From assembly GCA_034521595.1 (NCBI GenBank), contig JAXHMG010000002.1:160001-224000 (forward strand): DNA of 64,000 nt. The letters run 5' to 3'. The number at the start of each line of letters is the position of its first letter. The stretch's first letter is position 1. A program made the position numbers and the translations under genes. Source of the DNA: Gemmatimonadota bacterium (GTDB lineage Bacteria; Gemmatimonadota; Gemmatimonadetes; Longimicrobiales; Gaopeijiaceae). The notes beneath the pieces were generated by a model. That model was given only the letters and a program-made list of their open reading frames with translations, made no database searches and had not been told where the DNA came from. This document shows positions 9,196 through 51,592 of the stretch, in pieces.

Positions 9196-12100
9196 GCCCG
9201 GCGATCCGCCAGGGCCGCGAGCTCCCGCGCCACGACGGAGACCGCCGCGAATCCGACGGCGCTCTCGGCCTTCAGATCCGCCACGACCCCGCGGAATCGC
9301 TCGATCTCGCGAGCGCGCGTCCGGAGGAGCCGGTCGATCGCCACGGAGACGTCGTCCGTGGAACCGGTACGCCCGAGCACGTGCACCACCAACTTCCGGT
9401 GGGCGCGCGACAGGTCCTCGGAAAGGGCTTGGGCCGCCCGGTGCTCCCACTGATCGTCACCGACCGACGCGAAGGCCGACCGACGCAACCAGGGAATCTC
9501 GAACAGCTCGGAGGTCCGGTAATACGCATGCGCGGTCGCCACGGGATCGGATTCCGTATCCCGGGCGATATCGAGCACCTCCAGGAGCTGGTCGAGGAAG
9601 CGCAGCGTGATGAGGCGCCGTGAGAAGACTTCGTCCGCGCCCACCTTGCGGATCTCTTCCACCCTCGCCTCGAAGAGGGTTCGCTCCTCACCGGTGACGA
9701 ACGACCCGAAATTGTCCCGCAGCACGGCCAATCCCGGCACGCTCTCCGCCACGACCGTCGCGGGGGAAGTCTCCGGCTCCACGTTCTGGAGCACCCACCG
9801 AGTGGTCCGCTCCAGCACGCGCTGGAGACCCAGGATCCAGCGATAAGCGGCCCGGGTGTTGATCCGGTCCTGCTGCTCGGCGATCTGGGCCACGAGGGCA
9901 CGGTGATCGGCAAGCCGGGAGGCGACCAGCCAGGCACGGGCGACTTCTTCGACCCGCGAGCCCGTGTCACGGGCCACCCGCGTGATGAAGGTCGCGCCCA
10001 TCACGTCGACCAGATCGTTCGTGAGCTGACTGGCGATGATCTCGCGCCTCAGTCGATGCCCCTCGAGGCGCTCCCGCCCCGCGGCGGCGATGGCGGCCGA
10101 CGGGAAGTAGCCGAGGAGGTAACTCTCGGTGACCGGGTCGTCCGGCAAACCACCAGCCAGCAAGCGCGTCTTCAGGGCGAGCTTCGCATAGGAGAGCAAC
10201 ACGCAGAGCTCCGGACGCACCAGCGTTCTGCCTCCTTCCCGTCGCTCGCCCAAAACGTCGAGCGACGGAAGTCCTTCACCGGCCCGATCGAGCTCGCCCG
10301 TCTTCTCGAGCGCGAACATCAGGTCCCGGAAATCGTCGAAGCTCTCCCGCACCCGCTGCTCGTCGAGCGACACCGCGAGGCTCTGGCTCCGGTTGTCCTC
10401 GAGGACCAGATGGGCGATCGACTCGGTCAGCTCCTCCAGGAGCTCATTGCGCTCGTCCACCGACATGCGACCCTCCGCGACGGTCGGCTGCAGGAGGATC
10501 TTGAGGTTGACCTCGTGATCGGACATGTCGACGCCGCCCGAGTTGTCGAGCGCGTCCGTGTTGATGCGTCCACCCCGCAACGCGTACTCCACCCGAGCGG
10601 CCTGCGTGAAGCCCAGGTTACCCCCCTCTCCGACCACCTCGCACCGCAGCTCGGAGGCATCGATGCGGACCGAGTCGTTCGCGGGGTCCCCGGCATCGGC
10701 ATGGGTCTCCGAATCCGCCTTCACGTACGTCCCGATGCCTCCGTTCCAGAGGAGCTCCACCGGAGCCCTCAGCACGCACCGGATCAGCGTCTCGCCATCC
10801 ATCACTCCCGGCTCGTCGTCCGAAAGGCCGAGCGCCCGCCGTGCTTCGGGGGTGAGCTCGACCTCCTTCGCTCCCCGGGGAACCACCATCCCGCCGGGGC
10901 TGAGGAGGTCGGTGTCGTAATCTTCCCAGCTAGACCTCCCGAGCTCGAACACGCGCTTGCGCTCGGCGAAGGAAGTCGCGGGATCGGGGTCCGGATCGAT
11001 GAACACGTGCCGGTGGTCGAAGGCGGCCACCAAGCGAATCTGTTCGGACAGGAGCATCCCGTTGCCGAACACGTCGCCGCTCATGTCACCGATGCCCGCG
11101 ACCGTGAAGGGCTCCGTCTGGACATCCTTACCCTTCTCACGGAAGTGTCGCCTCACGCACTCCCACGCGCCGCGGGCGGTGATCCCCACCATCTTGTGGT
11201 CGTAGCCGTGCGACCCCCCGGAAGCGAACGCGTCATCGAGCCAGAAGCCGTATTCCGCGGCCACGGCGTTGGCGATGTCCGAGAAGGTGGCGGTCCCTTT
11301 ATCGGCCGCCACGACCAGATACGGGTCGGGAGGGTCGTACGCGACGATCCCTTCGGGCGTTACCGTGTCCCCTTGCACGTAGTTGTCCGTGATGTCGAGA
11401 AGGCCACGGATCAAGGTGCGGTACTGCCGCCGGCCCTCCTCCATGCGCGCGTCGGGCTCGGAGGGGACCCGGCGGGTGATGAAGCCTCCCTTCGAGCCCC
11501 CGGGAACGATCACCGCGTTCTTGACGACCTGTGTCCGCACCAGCCCGAGCACCTCGATCCGGAAATCGTCCGGGCGGTCGCTCCAGCGGATGCCGCCGCG
11601 GGCCACTCGCGCGCCGCGCAGATGCACTCCCTCCATCCGGGCCGAGTGGACCCATACCTCGTAGAGGAGGCTGGTCCTCCGTCCGAAGTCGAGCTCGTTG
11701 CTGTCGAACTTGAAGGAGACGTAGGGGGCGCCACCCGACCGCGCCTCGGGCCTCGCCCCACCGGTCCGATAGTAGTTCGTGCGCACGGTGGCGGAGATCA
11801 ACTCCGCCAGACGCCGAAGCGCTCGGTCGGCCGAGAGAAGCGCGACGCCCCGCAGCGACGCCTGAAAGGCCGCCCGGATGTCGGCCACGGCCCGGTCCCG
11901 CTCTTCCACCCCGAGGGAGCGTGACGGGTCGAAGCGGGTCTCGAAGAGCTCGAAGAGCTCCCGAGCGATGCCGGGGTGGGCTACCAGTGCGGAGGGCAGC
12001 GCCAGCCGGCTCGGGACCGCTCCGACCTGGAAGGCGAAGCCCGCGTATGCGCGGAGGGCGTCGACCTCCCTCCACCGCAGCCCGGCCGTGACGACGAGCG

Positions 12101-47735: not shown

Positions 47736-50207
47736 TCAGACGGTCGGACGGAGCTCGATCCACCCCGGGCCGGACGGGACCGGACGCACCACGGGTCCTC
47801 CGGGAACGCCGTCGGCTCTGGCTTCGAGGAGGTAATTGAACAGCTCGGGTCGGGCGTCCACGGCAGCGCCCCGGGTGATCAGGATCATCCTCGGGATCTC
47901 CTGCGTCAGCGCTTTCAGGAGCGACAACGTCCGGCTCCGGGTTTCGGAGTCCAAGCGGTCGAACGGCTCCTCGACGGGGAAGGAGGCCAGGACCCGGCCC
48001 GATCCCGCCGTCAGCGAAGCCGCCGCGAGACGCAACGCGAGTCGTGCAGCCGCGAGATCCTCCTCGGAAAGCGGATGGAGCACGCCCATGGTCCCCTGCA
48101 GGTGAGCTCGCCCACCGGATTCGGTCACGGCGAGGATCCGGCCTCCGGAGATGCGGCAGAGGAAGCGCGACGCTCGATCCAGGAGCTGATCCAGCGCACG
48201 TTGGAGTCGCGCGGCCCGCACCCGGCCGAGCGCCTCCACCACGGGCTTGTCGGGCCCTGCCAGCGCTCCCGCCAACTCCCCGTGCGAAGCCCCACCACCG
48301 CCCCGCTCCGCCAGCCGGTTGCGAAGGATCTCCACACGCTCCGATCCGGCCTCGATGGCCGCGTGGAGCCGCACGGCGCGGCCTTCGAGGTCCCGTAGGT
48401 GCTCGGGCTTCAGCTCGAGCTGCGCCCACCGACTCCGCCACCAGCTGCCGTCCTGCACCACCGCCTCCCATTCCTCCTTGAGCTCGGCGAGCACCGCTTC
48501 GTAGTGCGCGGCCAGCACACGGCCGCACGTCGGGCAAGGAGCGTCCGGACCGGCGGACTCCATCCTGCGAAGCCTCGCCCGCAGCTCCCGTGCCCGGTCG
48601 CGGTACGCCTGCAACGTGGTCTCGGCGTCCTGGCGCTCACGAAGCCAATCCATCGTGGCCGCTTCGAGGTCGCCGTCCACTTCCGCGGCGTCCGCCCGCA
48701 CCTGCTTGAGCTCCCGCTCGGCGGCATCCAGCTCTTCGGCGAGCGCCCGGCTCTCGGCCGAGCCGCTGGCCATCGCGTCCCCCCGATCGTCCGACGCCGG
48801 CCCCGGACGGTGGTCCGGATCGACCCCGGCCCGGTCCAGGGCAGCATCCAGGACGGTCAAACCCCTGCTGGCCGCGACCGCCTCGACGGCCAGCCTCAGC
48901 GCCGAATCGAGGGTTTCGGCCTCGATGCCCTGCCAGAGCCTGCCGAGCGGACTCGCGTCGCCGATCCGGCCACGGACGAACTCGGCCACGGCGCGACGGG
49001 TGCGTGAGCCCCCGCCGAACACCGCGGTGAGCCCTTCCGGAATGGACGTGCTGATCCGCCCGAGCCCCGGGACCGTTCCCTCGAGCACTTCCATGCGCCC
49101 CACCGGATGGGAGCCGAGGTCTTCCTCTTCGGGGAGCCACGCCGCAAGCCGATCGAGGGCCTCCGCCGAGCTCGAGCCTTCTCGCATCAGCTCCGCCTCC
49201 ACGGCGTCGCGGAGCCGTCGCACGGCCTCGGTCGGCAACCAGGCTTCCGCGGGCACGCGCGGCTCACGGCCGACTTCCACGGCGAGGTGGAGCGCCCGGT
49301 CCCGTAGCTCTTCGATCGGGGTCCCCTGGAGCGCGAGCAGGTCCGAGGGAACCGCGCCTTCGAGCCGTACCCGCACGATCTTGCCCTCGATGCCGCCCGG
49401 GACCTCGTCGGCGACCTCCCGCACCCGCCGCCGGACCCGGTCGGGGTCACCCGAGCCCACCTTGATGGGGGCGAGGGCCACGACCGGCCTCCCGCGAACC
49501 CGATGAAACGTCGCTTCCCCCCGTTCGACATCGACGGTCACGAACCCCTTTTCGTCCGCCGCTTCGTCCCACGGATCGAGGGCGACGCGCTCGAGCGAGC
49601 CGGCGTACCGCACTCCTCTCGTCACCTCCCGGGCTCGGTGCTCCCCCCCGAGCGCGACGTAGTCCCATTCGTCCGGTTCCACGTGCACGCCGCGCACCGG
49701 CCCTCCCGAAGCGGTGTGTGCATGCAGCACGAGGAGATTCCAACGGCGAGTCGGGTCGGGCTCCGGCACCACCGGTGGTTCCCGGACCGCCGCGCGATGG
49801 GGGACGAGACACGCATGCAGGTCGAGCCGGTCGATCAGGATGGACCGGGTGAGCCCGGTCGCGGCCTCCACGTTCGAGAACGTGTCCAACACGGCGAGGG
49901 CGCCCGGATCCCCCGAGCGGCGGGGGGTGTCTCTGGGCCCCGCCACCATCAGGACGGGAGCTCCGGACAGCGAGGAACGCAGCAGCTCGAGCCCCCGGGC
50001 GAGCGCGACCACGGCTCCGGCCGGCGGGTCCGGCCGGTCGAACACGTCCCCGGCCACGACCACCACGTCAGGCCCGATTCGTACGAGCTCCCCCACGGCA
50101 CGCTCGAACGCGGCCGATACGTCCCGCTCCCGGATGTTCATCTCGCTCTCGACGCGGCCGTACGCCCGAAATCCGAGATGGAGATCCGAGAGATGGGCGA
50201 CGATCAC
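47736..50207 (-). CDS. SbcD(Mre11)-SbcC(Rad50) fusion protein with degenerate catalytic motifs
   Basis: N-terminal HLSDLHLG and AGDVFD; C-half has coiled coil, CPTC hook and EEPFDRLD. Confidence 0.8.
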   Translation of the reverse strand: MIVAHLSDLHLGFRAYGRVESEMNIRERDVSAAFERAVGELVRIGPDVVVVAGDVFDRPDPPAGAVVALARGLELLRSSLSGAPVLMVAGPRDTPRRSGDPGALAVLDTFSNVEAATGLTRSILIDRLDLHACLVPHRAAVREPPVVPEPDPTRRWNLLVLHAHTASGGPVRGVHVEPDEWDYVALGGEHRAREVTRGVRYAGSLERVALDPWDEAADEKGFVTVDVERGEATFHRVRGRPVVALAPIKVGSGDPDRVRRRVREVADEVPGGIEGKIVRVRLEGAVPSDLLALQGTPIEELRDRALHLAVEVGREPRVPAEAWLPTEAVRRLRDAVEAELMREGSSSAEALDRLAAWLPEEEDLGSHPVGRMEVLEGTVPGLGRISTSIPEGLTAVFGGGSRTRRAVAEFVRGRIGDASPLGRLWQGIEAETLDSALRLAVEAVAASRGLTVLDAALDRAGVDPDHRPGPASDDRGDAMASGSAESRALAEELDAAERELKQVRADAAEVDGDLEAATMDWLRERQDAETTLQAYRDRARELRARLRRMESAGPDAPCPTCGRVLAAHYEAVLAELKEEWEAVVQDGSWWRSRWAQLELKPEHLRDLEGRAVRLHAAIEAGSERVEILRNRLAERGGGGASHGELAGALAGPDKPVVEALGRVRAARLQRALDQLLDRASRFLCRISGGRILAVTESGGRAHLQGTMGVLHPLSEEDLAAARLALRLAAASLTAGSGRVLASFPVEEPFDRLDSETRSRTLSLLKALTQEIPRMILITRGAAVDARPELFNYLLEARADGVPGGPVVRPVPSGPGWIELRPTV

Positions 50208-51592
50208 GAGGGCTGGCGGCTGCCGCCGAGAGGACGCCCGGCCGCCTCCGTCGGAGGCGGAGCACGTCGTGCCACGAGCACCTCGTCGCGAGTCTCGGAT
50301 CGATCCCGCCGCTCGGTCTCCCAGTCGGGCGGCCCGAACCCCCTTGGATGGTGCGCGGCCTTCGGGCCCCAGACCATGACGCCCTCGGGTGCCAGGAGCT
50401 CACCGAGACGCCGCTGCGCCGCCTTGGACACCGCCTCCAGACCGCCGACCGCGTCGAAGGCCCGGCCATCGACCAGGACGAGATCGAACGGGCCCTCGAG
50501 CTCCGAGAGCCGGTCGGCGAGGTTGCCGGTCAGAACCCGCCGCCTGGACCGGTCGAAACCCTCACCCTCCTCGGCCTGTTCTTCGACCTGCTCCCACTCC
50601 GGCACCGTGCCGAAGTGGCTGAGGCCGAGCTCCACGACGCAGTGCGCCCGCTCCAGAACGGTCACCTCGGCCCGCTCGTGCCGTGCCAGAACTTCGGAGG
50701 GAGCGTGCGACGCGCCACCCCCGACGTGGAGGACGCGGGGCGCCTCAGGGGCATCGGAGGATGCGAGGATCTCCCTCGCCGTGGCCACGTCCCAGGCGAT
50801 CTCGCTTCCGGACGCCCACGTCCCATCCCCGACGCTCCGGCCATCCCCGCCACGCTCCGCCCGCTGAACCGTCCGGACGACGTCACCTTCGAGCAACAGC
50901 CATTCGATCACGTCCCCACCCGCGTGCACCCGCTCCTCCACTCGAACCGGTGGCGGGCCCACACACCCCTTCGCCACCTCGCGCCGGCGAGGCGTACCGG
51001 ATCGGACCACTCCGTACGTCATGCCACCGAGCGACACGAGGACGAGACAGAGGACGAGCAACGACGCCGGGGTCGGCGCCTGGGGGAGCAGAAAACCCGT
51101 GAGCGCGAAACCCGCGGCCGCCCCGAAGGCCCCCACCGAGGCATGCCGGGGTGGGACGGCGCCGGCATTGCGATACGCCTCGAACACCAGTCCGCTCAGG
51201 AGCGCTCCGCACGCGTAGAGGGGGAGCCCGACCAAAACGGCCAGCCCCAGCCCCTGCCCGACCCGACCACTCCCGATCGTGGGCACCATCGTCCAAACCG
51301 TCCCGAACACCGTCGCCGCCAGGAACGCGACCAAGGTGAAGATCCACCTTCGGCGTATGCCGTCGACCGGCTCCGGCTTGGGGTACGGAGTCCACAGTCC
51401 GACCGCGAGCGCCGTCGCTTCGACGGTCAGAACGGTGGTCAGGGAGCGAGTGAAGCCCGGACCGCTGTAGAGAAGCAGACCCATGCCCACCTCGGCGGCC
51501 ACGGCGCTCGCGAATCCGACCACGAACACGGGCACCCACCCGAGGGGATGCCGGGCCTCGCCGGGCGGTCGACCCGCCGGACCTGCGCTCAC
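50204..51592 (-). CDS. Membrane-fused spermidine-synthase-like methyltransferase-fold protein
   Basis: About six N-terminal TM segments; RVLHVGGG, VTVLE, FDLVLVD, LAPEGV. Confidence 0.7.
   Translation of the reverse strand: MSAGPAGRPPGEARHPLGWVPVFVVGFASAVAAEVGMGLLLYSGPGFTRSLTTVLTVEATALAVGLWTPYPKPEPVDGIRRRWIFTLVAFLAATVFGTVWTMVPTIGSGRVGQGLGLAVLVGLPLYACGALLSGLVFEAYRNAGAVPPRHASVGAFGAAAGFALTGFLLPQAPTPASLLVLCLVLVSLGGMTYGVVRSGTPRRREVAKGCVGPPPVRVEERVHAGGDVIEWLLLEGDVVRTVQRAERGGDGRSVGDGTWASGSEIAWDVATAREILASSDAPEAPRVLHVGGGASHAPSEVLARHERAEVTVLERAHCVVELGLSHFGTVPEWEQVEEQAEEGEGFDRSRRRVLTGNLADRLSELEGPFDLVLVDGRAFDAVGGLEAVSKAAQRRLGELLAPEGVMVWGPKAAHHPRGFGPPDWETERRDRSETRDEVLVARRAPPPTEAAGRPLGGSRQPS

Follow-up and report, generated by a model that had tools for sequence, protein, structure and literature searches.

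The window analysed here, a stretch of 64,000 nucleotides from a Gemmatimonadota contig, carries on its minus strand a single uninterrupted ORF of 823 aa that begins with GTG and whose end coordinate takes in the stop codon (Table 1). The first-pass annotation had reported this frame without naming its strand; the frame is real, the plus-strand frame over the same interval is full of stops, and all motif strings quoted at that stage are present in the translation, the location of CPTC being exact. In DNA of 72% G+C with many overlapping ORFs of 200–450 aa, the length of an ORF is little proof of a gene, and the reality of this one rests on its homologues, on dN/dS values of 0.10–0.20 and on a confidently predicted fold (pLDDT 89.5). 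The GTG start is backed by orthologues that open with the same M/V-I-V-A-H-L, and by its overlap, as GTGA, with the stop codon of the gene upstream. The stretch is present in three DNA runs, two from one study of a salt pan metagenome (X1 and X2) and, at a small share, a sediment run (X3).

Table 1 Features of the single-chain SbcD–SbcC derivative and of the gene upstream of it
Feature	Coordinates	Strand	Basis or remark
Whole gene, single-chain SbcD–SbcC (Mre11–Rad50) derivative	47736..50207	-	ORF list, translation, homologues, dN/dS
Mre11/SbcD-like phosphoesterase domain and capping domain, residues 1–315	49263..50207	-	Mre11 and SbcD matches, by sequence and structure
Motif III remnant GPRD, residues 90–93, instead of GNH[DE]	49929..49940	-	Translation, member alignment
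Motif V remnant GGEH, residues 187–190, instead of GHxH	49638..49649	-	Translation, member alignment
Fusion joint, residues 321–371: two helices where Mre11/SbcD has its Rad50-binding helix–loop–helix, then a short linker	49095..49247	-	Predicted structure
Shortened Rad50/SbcC N-lobe, residues 372–467	48807..49094	-	Stand-alone C-half proteins of relatives begin here; predicted structure
Former Walker A, GGGSRTRR, residues 398–405	48993..49016	-	Translation, member alignment
Antiparallel coiled coil, residues 484–635, ~70 residues per arm, hook at tip	48303..48758	-	Predicted structure
Zinc-hook motif CPTC, residues 558–561	48525..48536	-	Between two long helices
Rad50/SbcC C-lobe, residues 653–800	47808..48251	-	Rad50 3qku_A, E 1.5e-4, residues 616–782
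Upstream co-directional gene, 462 aa	50204..51592	-	Membrane N-half and weak spermidine-synthase-like C-half; stop overlaps target start; context, not a demonstrated partner

The N-terminal half is, by comparison of its predicted structure, a phosphoesterase fold with an Mre11-type capping domain. Its sequence matches Mre11 (3auz_A, E 2.2e-11), and its model matches 5dny_C in Foldseek (E 7.7e-16), other Mre11 structures with overall Z scores of 24–26 (for 3dsd_A, Z 24.7 and r.m.s.d. 2.6 over 277, model residues 1..313) and SbcD 7dog_B with a Z score of 24.4. The TIGR00619 score of 40.2 bits lies below the curated cut-off of 77.65, and that of Pfam Metallophos (PF00149; 25.2, cut-off 21.5) just above, covering residues 3–93 only. 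Motifs I (DxH) and II (GDxxD) are present as DLHLG (residues 8–12) and GDVFD (residues 53–57). Among 58 diverse family members, to which all residue counts given here refer, the ligands of metal site 1 are kept: D8 in 53, H10 and D54 in 56 each, and H190, the second histidine of motif V, in 55. By contrast, the asparagine of motif III is found in none of the 58 and its histidine in two; the pattern GNH[DE] occurs in 0/120 close homologues and AGPRD in 117/120, among the matches listed. The substitutions are themselves conserved, with Arg92 in 54/58 members and Asp93 in 58/58. The first histidine of motif V has become glycine in 46/58 and survives in three, this protein reading GGEH for GHxH, and the histidine of motif IV (H162), present in this protein, is kept in just 31/58. 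The dinuclear metal site is half lost, metal 2 being deprived of two of its four ligands, and the catalytic histidine is replaced by a conserved arginine. The view that the protein retains only the zinc hook was nevertheless overstated, given that the four site-1 ligands persist in 53–56 of the 58 members and that conservation of the Mre11 core equals that of the hook. Beyond the capping domain, the model places the joint helices at residues 325–342 and 348–357, and structural alignments run as far as residue 361 of the model with 3av0_A and residue 364 with E. coli SbcD 6s6v_A. The joint is the least conserved part of the protein (conservation 0.28 over the 58 members). A homodimer prediction for two copies of residues 1–320, run without controls, scored 0.03 against a mark of 0.42, a value that carries no weight for or against a dimer.

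The C-terminal half is predicted to form a bipartite SMC/Rad50 head with an inserted antiparallel coiled coil, and its head matches reach Z scores of 15–17. The model of this half aligns with 3qku_A (Z 16.8, r.m.s.d. 24.6 over 266, a value in which the coiled coil is counted), with 5f3w_B (Z 15.1, r.m.s.d. 3.4 over 239) and with SbcC 6s6v_C (Z 13.4, r.m.s.d. 5.0 over 244). The stretch between the Rad50-like N-terminus and the hook measures 186 residues, compared with ~405 in canonical SbcC of the same order, and only three strands and accompanying helices precede the coil in the model, in agreement with the truncation of the N-lobe and the shortness of the coiled coil noted at first pass. The Walker A region, GLTAVFGGGSRTRR (residues 392–405), does not contain GxxxxGK[ST], its Lys and Ser/Thr both being lost: the site of the lysine is occupied by arginine in 43/58 members and by lysine in none, and the pattern is found in 0/120 close homologues, among the matches listed, and in 0/88 representatives. 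The C-lobe carries motif remnants, namely RISGGRIL (residues 685–692), LSEED (residues 713–717) in place of the signature and without the GG of canonical ISGGEED, FPVEEPFDRLD (residues 743–753) at Walker B and the D-loop, where VEEP has glutamate for aspartate, and ILITR (residues 775–779) at the H-loop, with arginine for histidine. The signature, Walker B and H-loop sites vary across the family. This loss of motifs argues against both ATP-dependent dimerisation of the heads and ATP hydrolysis. The best conserved region of the C-half is the coiled coil with its hook (0.64, 0.81 and 0.64 over the 58 members), which has motifs in common with canonical SbcC of the same order. Its helices span residues 484–555 and 566–635 in the model, and sequence and predicted structure agree in placing the CxxC hook, a putative zinc-binding site, at the apex. 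As had been noted from the sequence, the hook is kept: Cys558 and Cys561 are each present in all 58 members, and CxxC in 120/120 close homologues among the matches listed.

The gene is widespread in its lineage. At least 120 full-length homologues with 62–100% identity and no stops were found among the matches listed, and the gene occurs, either as the fusion or as two adjacent genes, in 128/151 genomes and 72/81 genera of its own GTDB family, a single family-level group whose MAGs are mostly labelled Gemmatimonadota or Longimicrobiales. The remaining 23/151 genomes gave no match, and the gene is therefore dispensable in some lineages. Values of dN/dS are ~0.1–0.2 in every domain; in the least saturated pair (dS 0.39) the Mre11 core stands at 0.055, the hook at 0.075, the C-lobe at 0.068 and the N-lobe at 0.164. 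Conservation over the 58 members is 0.64 for the Mre11 core, 0.64–0.81 for the hook region, and 0.38 and 0.46 for the ATPase lobes. Purifying selection acts on all domains. The ortholog and dN/dS comparisons proposed in the first-pass annotation thus establish a conserved single-chain derivative with conserved substitutions, and the residue counts together with dN/dS bear out its central observation, the selective loss of catalytic motifs while the frame stays intact and under selection. Decay into a pseudogene or an error of assembly, for which the loss of nearly all catalytic motifs might speak, is refuted by the stop-free full-length homologues, the occurrence across the family, the low dN/dS in every domain, the high-confidence fold and the conservation of the substitutions, and we give it virtually no credence. 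The split, two-gene forms are as degenerate as the fused ones, and motif degeneration therefore preceded fusion. The tree requires at least two changes between the fused and split states, with fusion in at least two sublineages, that of the present gene among them, and separates the degenerate clade from canonical SbcC with an SH-aLRT of 99.

By chromosomal position, this gene is orthologous to the canonical sbcD–sbcC gene pair of other Gemmatimonadota. The canonical neighbours from other families comprise eight SbcD proteins with G[ND]HD and GHYH and nine SbcC proteins of 800–1074 aa with GxNGxGK[ST] and CPTC, and in two genomes of the same order (G167 and G106) a canonical sbcD–sbcC pair lies in the same synteny. 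With these pairs the protein shares its position, an Mre11 fold that includes the capping domain and helix–loop–helix, the Rad50 head, the antiparallel coiled coil, the CPTC hook with its flanks W..D.Q.A.T...YRD and VQDG.W...R..QLE.KP, motifs I and II, and RISGGRIL, which resembles LTxGRY. It differs in being one chain instead of two, in the replacement of GNHD by GPRD, of GHYH by GGEH, of GPNGAGKS by GGGSRTRR and of ISGGEED by LS--EED, in the substitution of Glu for Asp at Walker B and of Arg for His at the H-loop, and in the length of the SbcC part, which is 452 aa as against ~800–825 aa in canonical proteins of the same order, ~350 residues of coiled coil and N-lobe having been shed.

With canonical SbcC and SbcD as queries, the best match in the gene’s own genome is the fused gene itself. 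Searches of this genome, which is 93% complete, with TIGR00618/TIGR00619 and canonical SbcC returned no second hook-bearing SbcC, and its two other nuclease/ATPase pairs are without CxxC; 15 genomes of the gene’s own family (f1) that gave no match to the gene showed no canonical copy either. These results bear directly on an earlier suggestion, that the protein regulates a canonical SbcC of the same cell by hook-to-hook pairing. Within the C-half, nothing is better conserved than the hook with its flanks, and the hook region is 33–47% identical to canonical Gemmatimonadota SbcC hooks. However, the gene has replaced canonical SbcCD as its orthologue and is not a paralogue beside a canonical copy, and because the genome yields no other hook-bearing SbcC, its two SbcC-like ATPases lacking CxxC, such a role is unsupported and in our judgement exceedingly improbable. 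We also considered compensation by the other nuclease/ATPase pairs. A YhaN-like (AAA_27) ATPase in the window is present in 4/9 family genomes, and in 0/53 (f4) and 0/28 (f5) genomes with canonical SbcCD; however, G113 and G116 have the degenerate gene and no YhaN-like ATPase, and the remaining pair, encoded on contig C1, occurs sporadically (1/9 in the family and 0 elsewhere). This pattern is suggestive but inconsistent, and compensation is not claimed.

The surrounding region consists of syntenic housekeeping genes, including those for a sigma factor, RsgA, an ABC importer and anthranilate synthase. As it is syntenic across the family, and in part with genomes that have canonical SbcCD, the neighbourhood gives no clue specific to the degenerate form. 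This weighs on the possibility of a role away from DNA, in which the protein might, for instance, be a coiled-coil scaffold acting together with the translationally coupled membrane protein upstream or with a neighbouring envelope glycosyltransferase. The start of the gene overlaps the stop of the membrane/spermidine-synthase-like gene (GTGA), the two adjoin in 13/16 loci, and every catalytic DNA-repair motif is gone, all of which would fit such a role. The upstream gene is missing at 3/16 loci, though, and in G167 the same gene precedes a canonical, motif-intact sbcD, so that the adjacency is older than the degeneration; together with the housekeeping surroundings, this makes a non-DNA role improbable. 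Still further from the evidence is an anti-phage sensor derived from SbcCD. Lamassu LmuB/LmuC are reported to be an exaptation of SbcCD with shortened coiled coils, and they share with the present protein SbcCD descent, short coiled coils, a CxxC hook (in many members) and a new use (PMC12663957); weak PADLOC matches also link its coiled-coil/hook region to LmuB (E 1.1e-5 and 2.1e-4). However, LmuB has a prototypical Walker A that is required for defence (PMC12663957), of which there is none here, and whereas Lamassu has an effector, LmuA, and occurs in defence contexts, no effector gene is adjacent in this case and inheritance is vertical and syntenic across the family, not that of a defence island. 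We therefore regard an anti-phage role as very unlikely. Identification as a defence system was dropped, the LmuB matches being weak and confined to the coiled coil and the neighbours being housekeeping genes.

The residues for ATP binding and most of those for nuclease activity have been lost under strong conservation of the remainder, and this motif-depleted SbcCD orthologue therefore probably holds DNA rather than cuts it. DNA-end binding is its most plausible function. The reading we consider best, and to which we would give about an even chance, is a scaffold that works without catalysis or ATP to bind or tether DNA ends, as suggested by the pattern of features kept and lost. ATP binding and hydrolysis would have disappeared together with the dinuclear nuclease centre, and the protein would bind DNA ends or DNA structures without catalysis or ATP. 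It would dimerise probably through the zinc hook and, judged by homology only, through the Mre11 domain, and so might serve other enzymes by holding, bridging or shielding DNA ends. The conserved pocket of D8, H10, D54 and H190 with Arg92 and Asp93 may hold one metal, a DNA phosphate or both. On this account the sensing and tethering half of Mre11–Rad50 would be retained and the cutting half dropped. In Vps29 and in the B subunits of replicative polymerases, the calcineurin-like phosphoesterase fold has lost metal ligands and persists as a scaffold for binding; these proteins belong to unrelated lineages with unrelated partners, and the present protein, unlike them, still conserves the four ligands of one metal site. 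Since the motif-less ATPase lobes are still under purifying selection (in the sub-clade compared), they do something that the scaffold model leaves unspecified. Further points against that model are that the gene is missing from some family genomes and that no Ku was found in its own genome, which leaves no obvious end-joining partner.

The four metal ligands and the conserved Arg/Asp pair could equally form a residual or altered catalytic site. The corresponding alternative is that the protein is still an enzyme, in which a mononuclear or rebuilt site cleaves DNA or another phosphoester without ATP, Arg92 and Asp93 stand in for the His and Asn, and the dead Rad50 part is a dimerising arm only. 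The retention of the site-1 ligands and of Arg92/Asp93 in nearly all members, the fact that dN/dS is lowest in the Mre11 core, and the presence of LpxH among the fold matches (5b49_A, Z 13.0) all favour it; LpxH is an active enzyme of the same fold and carries GNRD, with an arginine at the position of the histidine. Against it stand the near-universal absence of two metal-2 ligands and the patchy retention of the motif IV histidine, and it conflicts with the established requirements of the Mre11/SbcD nuclease, which needs both metals and the motif III histidine, and in which cleavage of double-stranded DNA needs ATP binding by Rad50. We regard residual catalysis as unlikely, yet with an appreciable chance of being correct.

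A more specific version of a DNA-holding role, which we consider distinctly doubtful, is a nucleotide-free Mre11–Rad50 in which protein contacts replace ATP between the heads and a zinc-hooked, permanently closed clamp binds and shields DNA ends. One candidate contact would pair the arginine-rich former P-loop (GGGxRxRR) with the acidic former signature (S-E-E-D) of the other head. In a bacterium whose genome yielded no Ku, such a clamp, if real, would protect or tether ends in a Ku-like way with a protein derived from SbcCD, and would be a natural separation-of-function allele of Mre11–Rad50 minus ATP and minus cutting.

It has long been asked how much of the work of Mre11–Rad50/SbcCD is structural (sensing, tethering and end protection) and how much depends on ATP and nuclease activity, and the usual approach is by engineered point mutants. 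The family described here amounts to a natural long-term experiment, in which an orthologue stripped of its ATP site and of one half of the nuclease centre, with shorter arms and fused into one chain, is still under purifying selection. Should it bind or bridge DNA without ATP, as the scaffold reading has it, it would provide a compact, one-chain system for studying what Mre11–Rad50 does apart from catalysis, and a clear case of an enzyme turning into a pseudoenzyme in place, at the original locus and not via duplication. If, on the other hand, the protein still cuts DNA, it would represent a new ATP-independent, single-metal Mre11 chemistry.

A literature search, in which supplements were not seen, found no description of a motif-less or Gemmatimonadota SbcCD, nor, among the papers listed, the words ‘pseudoenzyme’ or ‘pseudonuclease’. 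The initial impression that this architecture had not been described therefore holds for the motif-less form, but not for fusion as such: fused Mre11/Rad50 proteins with intact motifs (SbcDC) were described in 2011 from Mimivirus (R555), a Clostridium kluyveri plasmid, a Deferribacter megaplasmid and some eukaryotes (Yoshida, Claverie, Ogata 2011, PMC3175470). These fusions, in a paper that makes no mention of Gemmatimonad*, ‘inactive’ or ‘hook’, likewise have an Mre11-like N-terminus followed by a Rad50-like C-terminus in one chain. They keep Walker A/B, the D-loop and DXH..GDXXD..GNHD/E with the catalytic histidines, and they are long (R555, 1351 aa), sporadic, linked to viruses and plasmids, and found beside canonical copies (PMC3175470). 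By contrast, the protein described here is motif-less, short, vertically inherited and present in place of the canonical copy. The large survey of LmuB/SbcC homologues in the SI tables of PMC12663957 might include members of this protein family.

The translation of the fused SbcD-SbcC (Mre11-Rad50) derivative contains every motif string quoted in the first-pass annotation, at the computed positions tabulated below, and CPTC (residues 558-561) falls, as annotated, at nt 48525-48536. Because the region is ~72% G+C and densely packed with long overlapping ORFs, ORF length alone is no proof of a gene. The start residues are those that open its orthologues, and the plus-strand frame across the same interval has many stops.

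Coordinates of the target, its motifs and other features (window positions unless residues, a contig or a locus are named)
Feature	Position	Strand	Remark
Target ORF	47736..50207	-	823 aa, GTG start
DLHLG	residues 8-12	-	translation of target
GDVFD	residues 53-57	-	translation of target
GPRD	residues 90-93	-	translation of target
GGEH	residues 187-190	-	translation of target
GLTAVFGGGSRTRR	residues 392-405	-	translation of target
LSEED	residues 713-717	-	translation of target
FPVEEPFDRLD	residues 743-753	-	translation of target
ILITR	residues 775-779	-	translation of target
Hook-flanking motifs	48426-48461, 48615-48647	-	WLRERQDAETT before hook, VVQDGSWWRSRW after
Upstream gene	50204-51592	-	its stop and the target's start codon overlap as GTGA; translationally coupled
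Downstream ORF, 196 aa	47075-47665	-	low-complexity, Gly/Arg/Pro/Ala-rich
Metallophos protein, 455 aa	14131-15498	+	intact GNHD/GHIH
AAA_27/YhaN-like ATPase, 897 aa	15495-18188	+	GPNEAGKST
SbcD-like (387 aa), SbcC-like and PD-(D/E)XK trio, locus L142	contig C1 (own genome) 99446-106277	-	
Bacterial NAD-specific glutamate dehydrogenase, 1650 aa	9192-14144	-	full ACT and helical-motif domain set
TAG junction, locus L034 (genome G253)	10655-10670		one TAG, 12 nt with AGGA, TTG start

A word-indexed protein search with the target returned 409 proteins, the best 120 of which are 798-848 aa long and 62-100% identical at query coverage of at least 97%. Among these best 120, CxxC is present in all, LGG.H in 119 and AGPRD in 117, and neither GNH[DE] nor a Walker A pattern occurs (0/120 each). 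An exhaustive search of representatives yielded 1750 hits with E <= 1e-3, of which 170 reached E <= 1e-30. The comparison of orthologues and dN/dS suggested in the first-pass annotation revealed matches at E <= 1e-20 in 128/151 genomes and 72/81 genera of the target's GTDB family, and pairwise Nei-Gojobori dN/dS of 0.10-0.20 overall among ten orthologues (one saturated pair apart, 0.04). For the least saturated pair (dS 0.39), dN/dS is 0.105 overall, 0.055 in the Mre11 core, 0.10 in the capping/linker region, 0.164 in the N-lobe, 0.075 in the hook region and 0.068 in the C-lobe. The target is a conserved gene under purifying selection. A pseudogene is excluded by the lengths of the homologues, their distribution in the family and these ratios. 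Named relatives (best 80 of 261) come from MAGs bearing the label Gemmatimonadota, Longimicrobiales or Gemmatimonadales; the two exceptions are a 4-kb contig given as "Planctomycetota" and an "uncultured bacterium".

Profile matches are faint: Pfam recognises Metallophos in the first 90 residues only (E 2.5e-5), and in NCBIfam the N-half falls below threshold for SbcD/Mre11 (TIGR00619, 40.2 bits, cut-off 77.65), as does the C-half, very weakly, for Rad50/SbcC. Searches against solved structures match residues 3-230 to M. jannaschii Mre11 (E 2.2e-11) and residues 616-782 to P. furiosus Rad50 (E 1.5e-4). The full-length AlphaFold2 model, for which 58 family members were aligned, has high confidence (pLDDT 89.5, pTM 0.77), and its residues 1-315 superimpose on Mre11/SbcD structures (3dsd_A, Z 24.7, rmsd 2.6 over 277; S. 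aureus SbcD 7dog_B, Z 24.4; Foldseek to 5dny_C, E 7.7e-16). Two helices (325-357) occupy the position of the Rad50-binding helix-loop-helix of Mre11/SbcD, with alignments extending to residue 361 (3av0_A) and 364 (E. coli SbcD 6s6v_A). The C-half, modelled separately (pLDDT 87), has the fold of Rad50/SMC heads (3qku_A, Z 16.8; 5h68_B, Z 16.4, rmsd 3.1 over 222; 5f3w_B, Z 15.1, rmsd 3.4 over 239; E. coli SbcC 6s6v_C, Z 13.4), and in the full-length model helices 484-555 and 566-635 pair as a coiled coil whose tip carries CPTC.

Residue counts over 58 fused members, with identity down to 34%, revealed a selective pattern of loss. D8 (53/58, Glu in the remaining 5), H10 (56/58), D54 (56/58) and H190 (55/58) are kept; these we take to be the metal 1 ligands, matching P. 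furiosus Mre11 D8, H10, D49 and H208. G90, D93, G187, C558 and C561 are invariant (58/58). The Asn of GNH is lost (0/58), as is the first His of GHxH (3/58; Gly in 46/58), the motif IV His is found in only 31/58, the catalytic His site is Arg in 54/58, and the Walker A Lys site is Arg in 43/58 and never Lys. Positions of the signature, Walker B, D-loop and H-loop vary across the set. Thus, of the earlier statement that only the zinc hook is retained, retention of the hook holds and "only" does not, since the metal 1 ligands are kept as well. Mean top-residue frequency is 0.81 in the hook, 0.64 in the Mre11 core and in each coiled-coil arm, 0.61 in the capping domain, 0.46 in the C-lobe, 0.38 in the N-lobe and 0.28 in the linker. 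The motifs flanking the hook are conserved as strongly as the hook itself, and canonical SbcC from this phylum has related forms (DG-aromatic-aromatic), which suggests an extended, lineage-specific hook interface.

Canonical same-order SbcC differs from the target in having ISGGEED, where the target reads LS--EED without the GG, and in the distances from N terminus to hook (~405 residues versus 186) and from hook to C terminus (~395 versus 262). Beyond the family, matches to the C-half query are confined to the hook region of ORFs ~800-1000 aa long, each next to an SbcD-like gene of ~395 aa. At nine such loci inspected for canonical motifs, 8 SbcD carry G[ND]HD and GHYH and 9 SbcC carry GxNGxGK[ST] and CPTC near residue 405, the same-order SbcC additionally having LILDEVF and ILITH. 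In two same-order genomes (G167 and G106) the canonical pair lies in the target's synteny, the gene order being flavin reductase, upstream membrane-protein gene, sbcD-sbcC and finally TMEM260-like or anthranilate synthase genes; this synteny was not seen in the three genomes examined from f4 and f5, families that keep canonical SbcCD. Family-wide searches gave 95/96 for f4 and 38/38 for f5, and C-half query searches 93/96 and 38/38; three genomes marked as unpublished (G057, G157 and G182) count in these tallies, and in no other claim, and without them the figures are 93/94 and 37/37, and 91/94 and 37/37, respectively. A search of the target's own genome with canonical SbcD/SbcC has the target itself as top hit and reveals no second hook region. 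In a hook-region tree, 69 degenerate rows stand apart from 9 canonical ones (SH-aLRT 99). Given the synteny, this top hit and the tree, the target is the orthologue of canonical SbcCD.

Family members occur either as a single chain of 740-930 aa or as two adjacent genes (~360-410 aa and ~450-515 aa), the second beginning exactly at query residue ~372, with the same degenerate motifs in both forms. Split-gene junctions are GTGA/ATGA overlaps or, in several genomes, one in-frame TAG, after which the second gene has a ribosome-binding site and a start codon of its own; same-frame halves divided by TAG mark some genera, being found, besides L034, in G293, G317, G252 and G230. Such halves resemble either a fused gene that a nonsense mutation has divided or a fusion still to come, and read-through at the TAG may yield both forms. 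The fused/split state changes 9 times on the tree, at least two changes being forced by well-supported branches, and the fused clade that includes the target has 11 members (support 99) and is distinct from a second of 27; the fine order is uncertain because the tree is a quick search on 160 columns. Degeneration thus occurred once, before fusion, and fusion or splitting more than once.

In Mre11-Rad50, the heads are driven to engage by ATP sandwiched by Walker A and the signature motif, and cleavage depends on two metals together with the motif III His. As Walker A and the signature have degenerated and the motif III His and part of the second metal site are lost, the target would neither bind nor hydrolyse ATP, and would lack a dinuclear nuclease centre. 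Constraint has stayed strongest in the Mre11 core, with its one metal/phosphate pocket, and in the coiled coil next to the hook. The main rival reading, an ATP-independent enzyme rebuilt around a single metal, strikes us as improbable. The simplest interpretation, a non-catalytic binder of DNA ends or DNA structures, has, in our judgement, about an even chance of being correct; such a protein is predicted to dimerise through the zinc hook and to bridge or shield DNA without cutting it. The proposed hook decoy or regulator of canonical SbcCD fails for want of a partner, as searches of the own genome (93% complete) found no other hook-bearing SbcC.

Fused Mre11/Rad50 proteins are already in print, so the earlier claim of an undescribed architecture does not extend to the fusion; those described keep their catalytic motifs and occur sporadically, in association with mobile elements (PMC3175470), whereas the target has lost the motifs. 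Lamassu, likewise derived from SbcCD, is a shortened and repurposed machine that keeps Walker A (PMC12663957), unlike the target. Of a motif-less SbcCD orthologue no description was found in the literature searched, supplementary material aside.

The own genome (3.49 Mb, 93% complete) encodes RecN, and Ku was not found in it. Two further nuclease/ATPase pairs have intact motifs, no CxxC and a patchy distribution. The AAA_27/YhaN-like ATPase has a hydrophobic, membrane-like mid-stretch where a CxxC hook would be expected, and occurs in 4/9 family genomes and in 0/53 and 0/28 of two canonical-SbcCD families. The C1 trio (hookless 901-aa SbcC-like ATPase with SbcC_Walker_B; 984-aa PD-(D/E)XK protein) is sporadic (2/121 genomes of the phylum sample, own genome included) and is possibly an accessory module or one of defence type. 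Housekeeping genes surround the target, and synteny of this region extends across the family. The upstream gene adjoins the target in 13/16 loci and already precedes canonical sbcD in G167; its N-half has several predicted membrane helices and its C-half a weak spermidine-synthase/methyltransferase-like match (NCBIfam E 0.02-0.1). The 196-aa ORF downstream is probably not a gene. Two runs of one salt pan metagenome sample, X1 and X2, contain almost all of the target interval (0.97 and 0.75 of sampled words, respectively), and one of them is possibly the assembly source.
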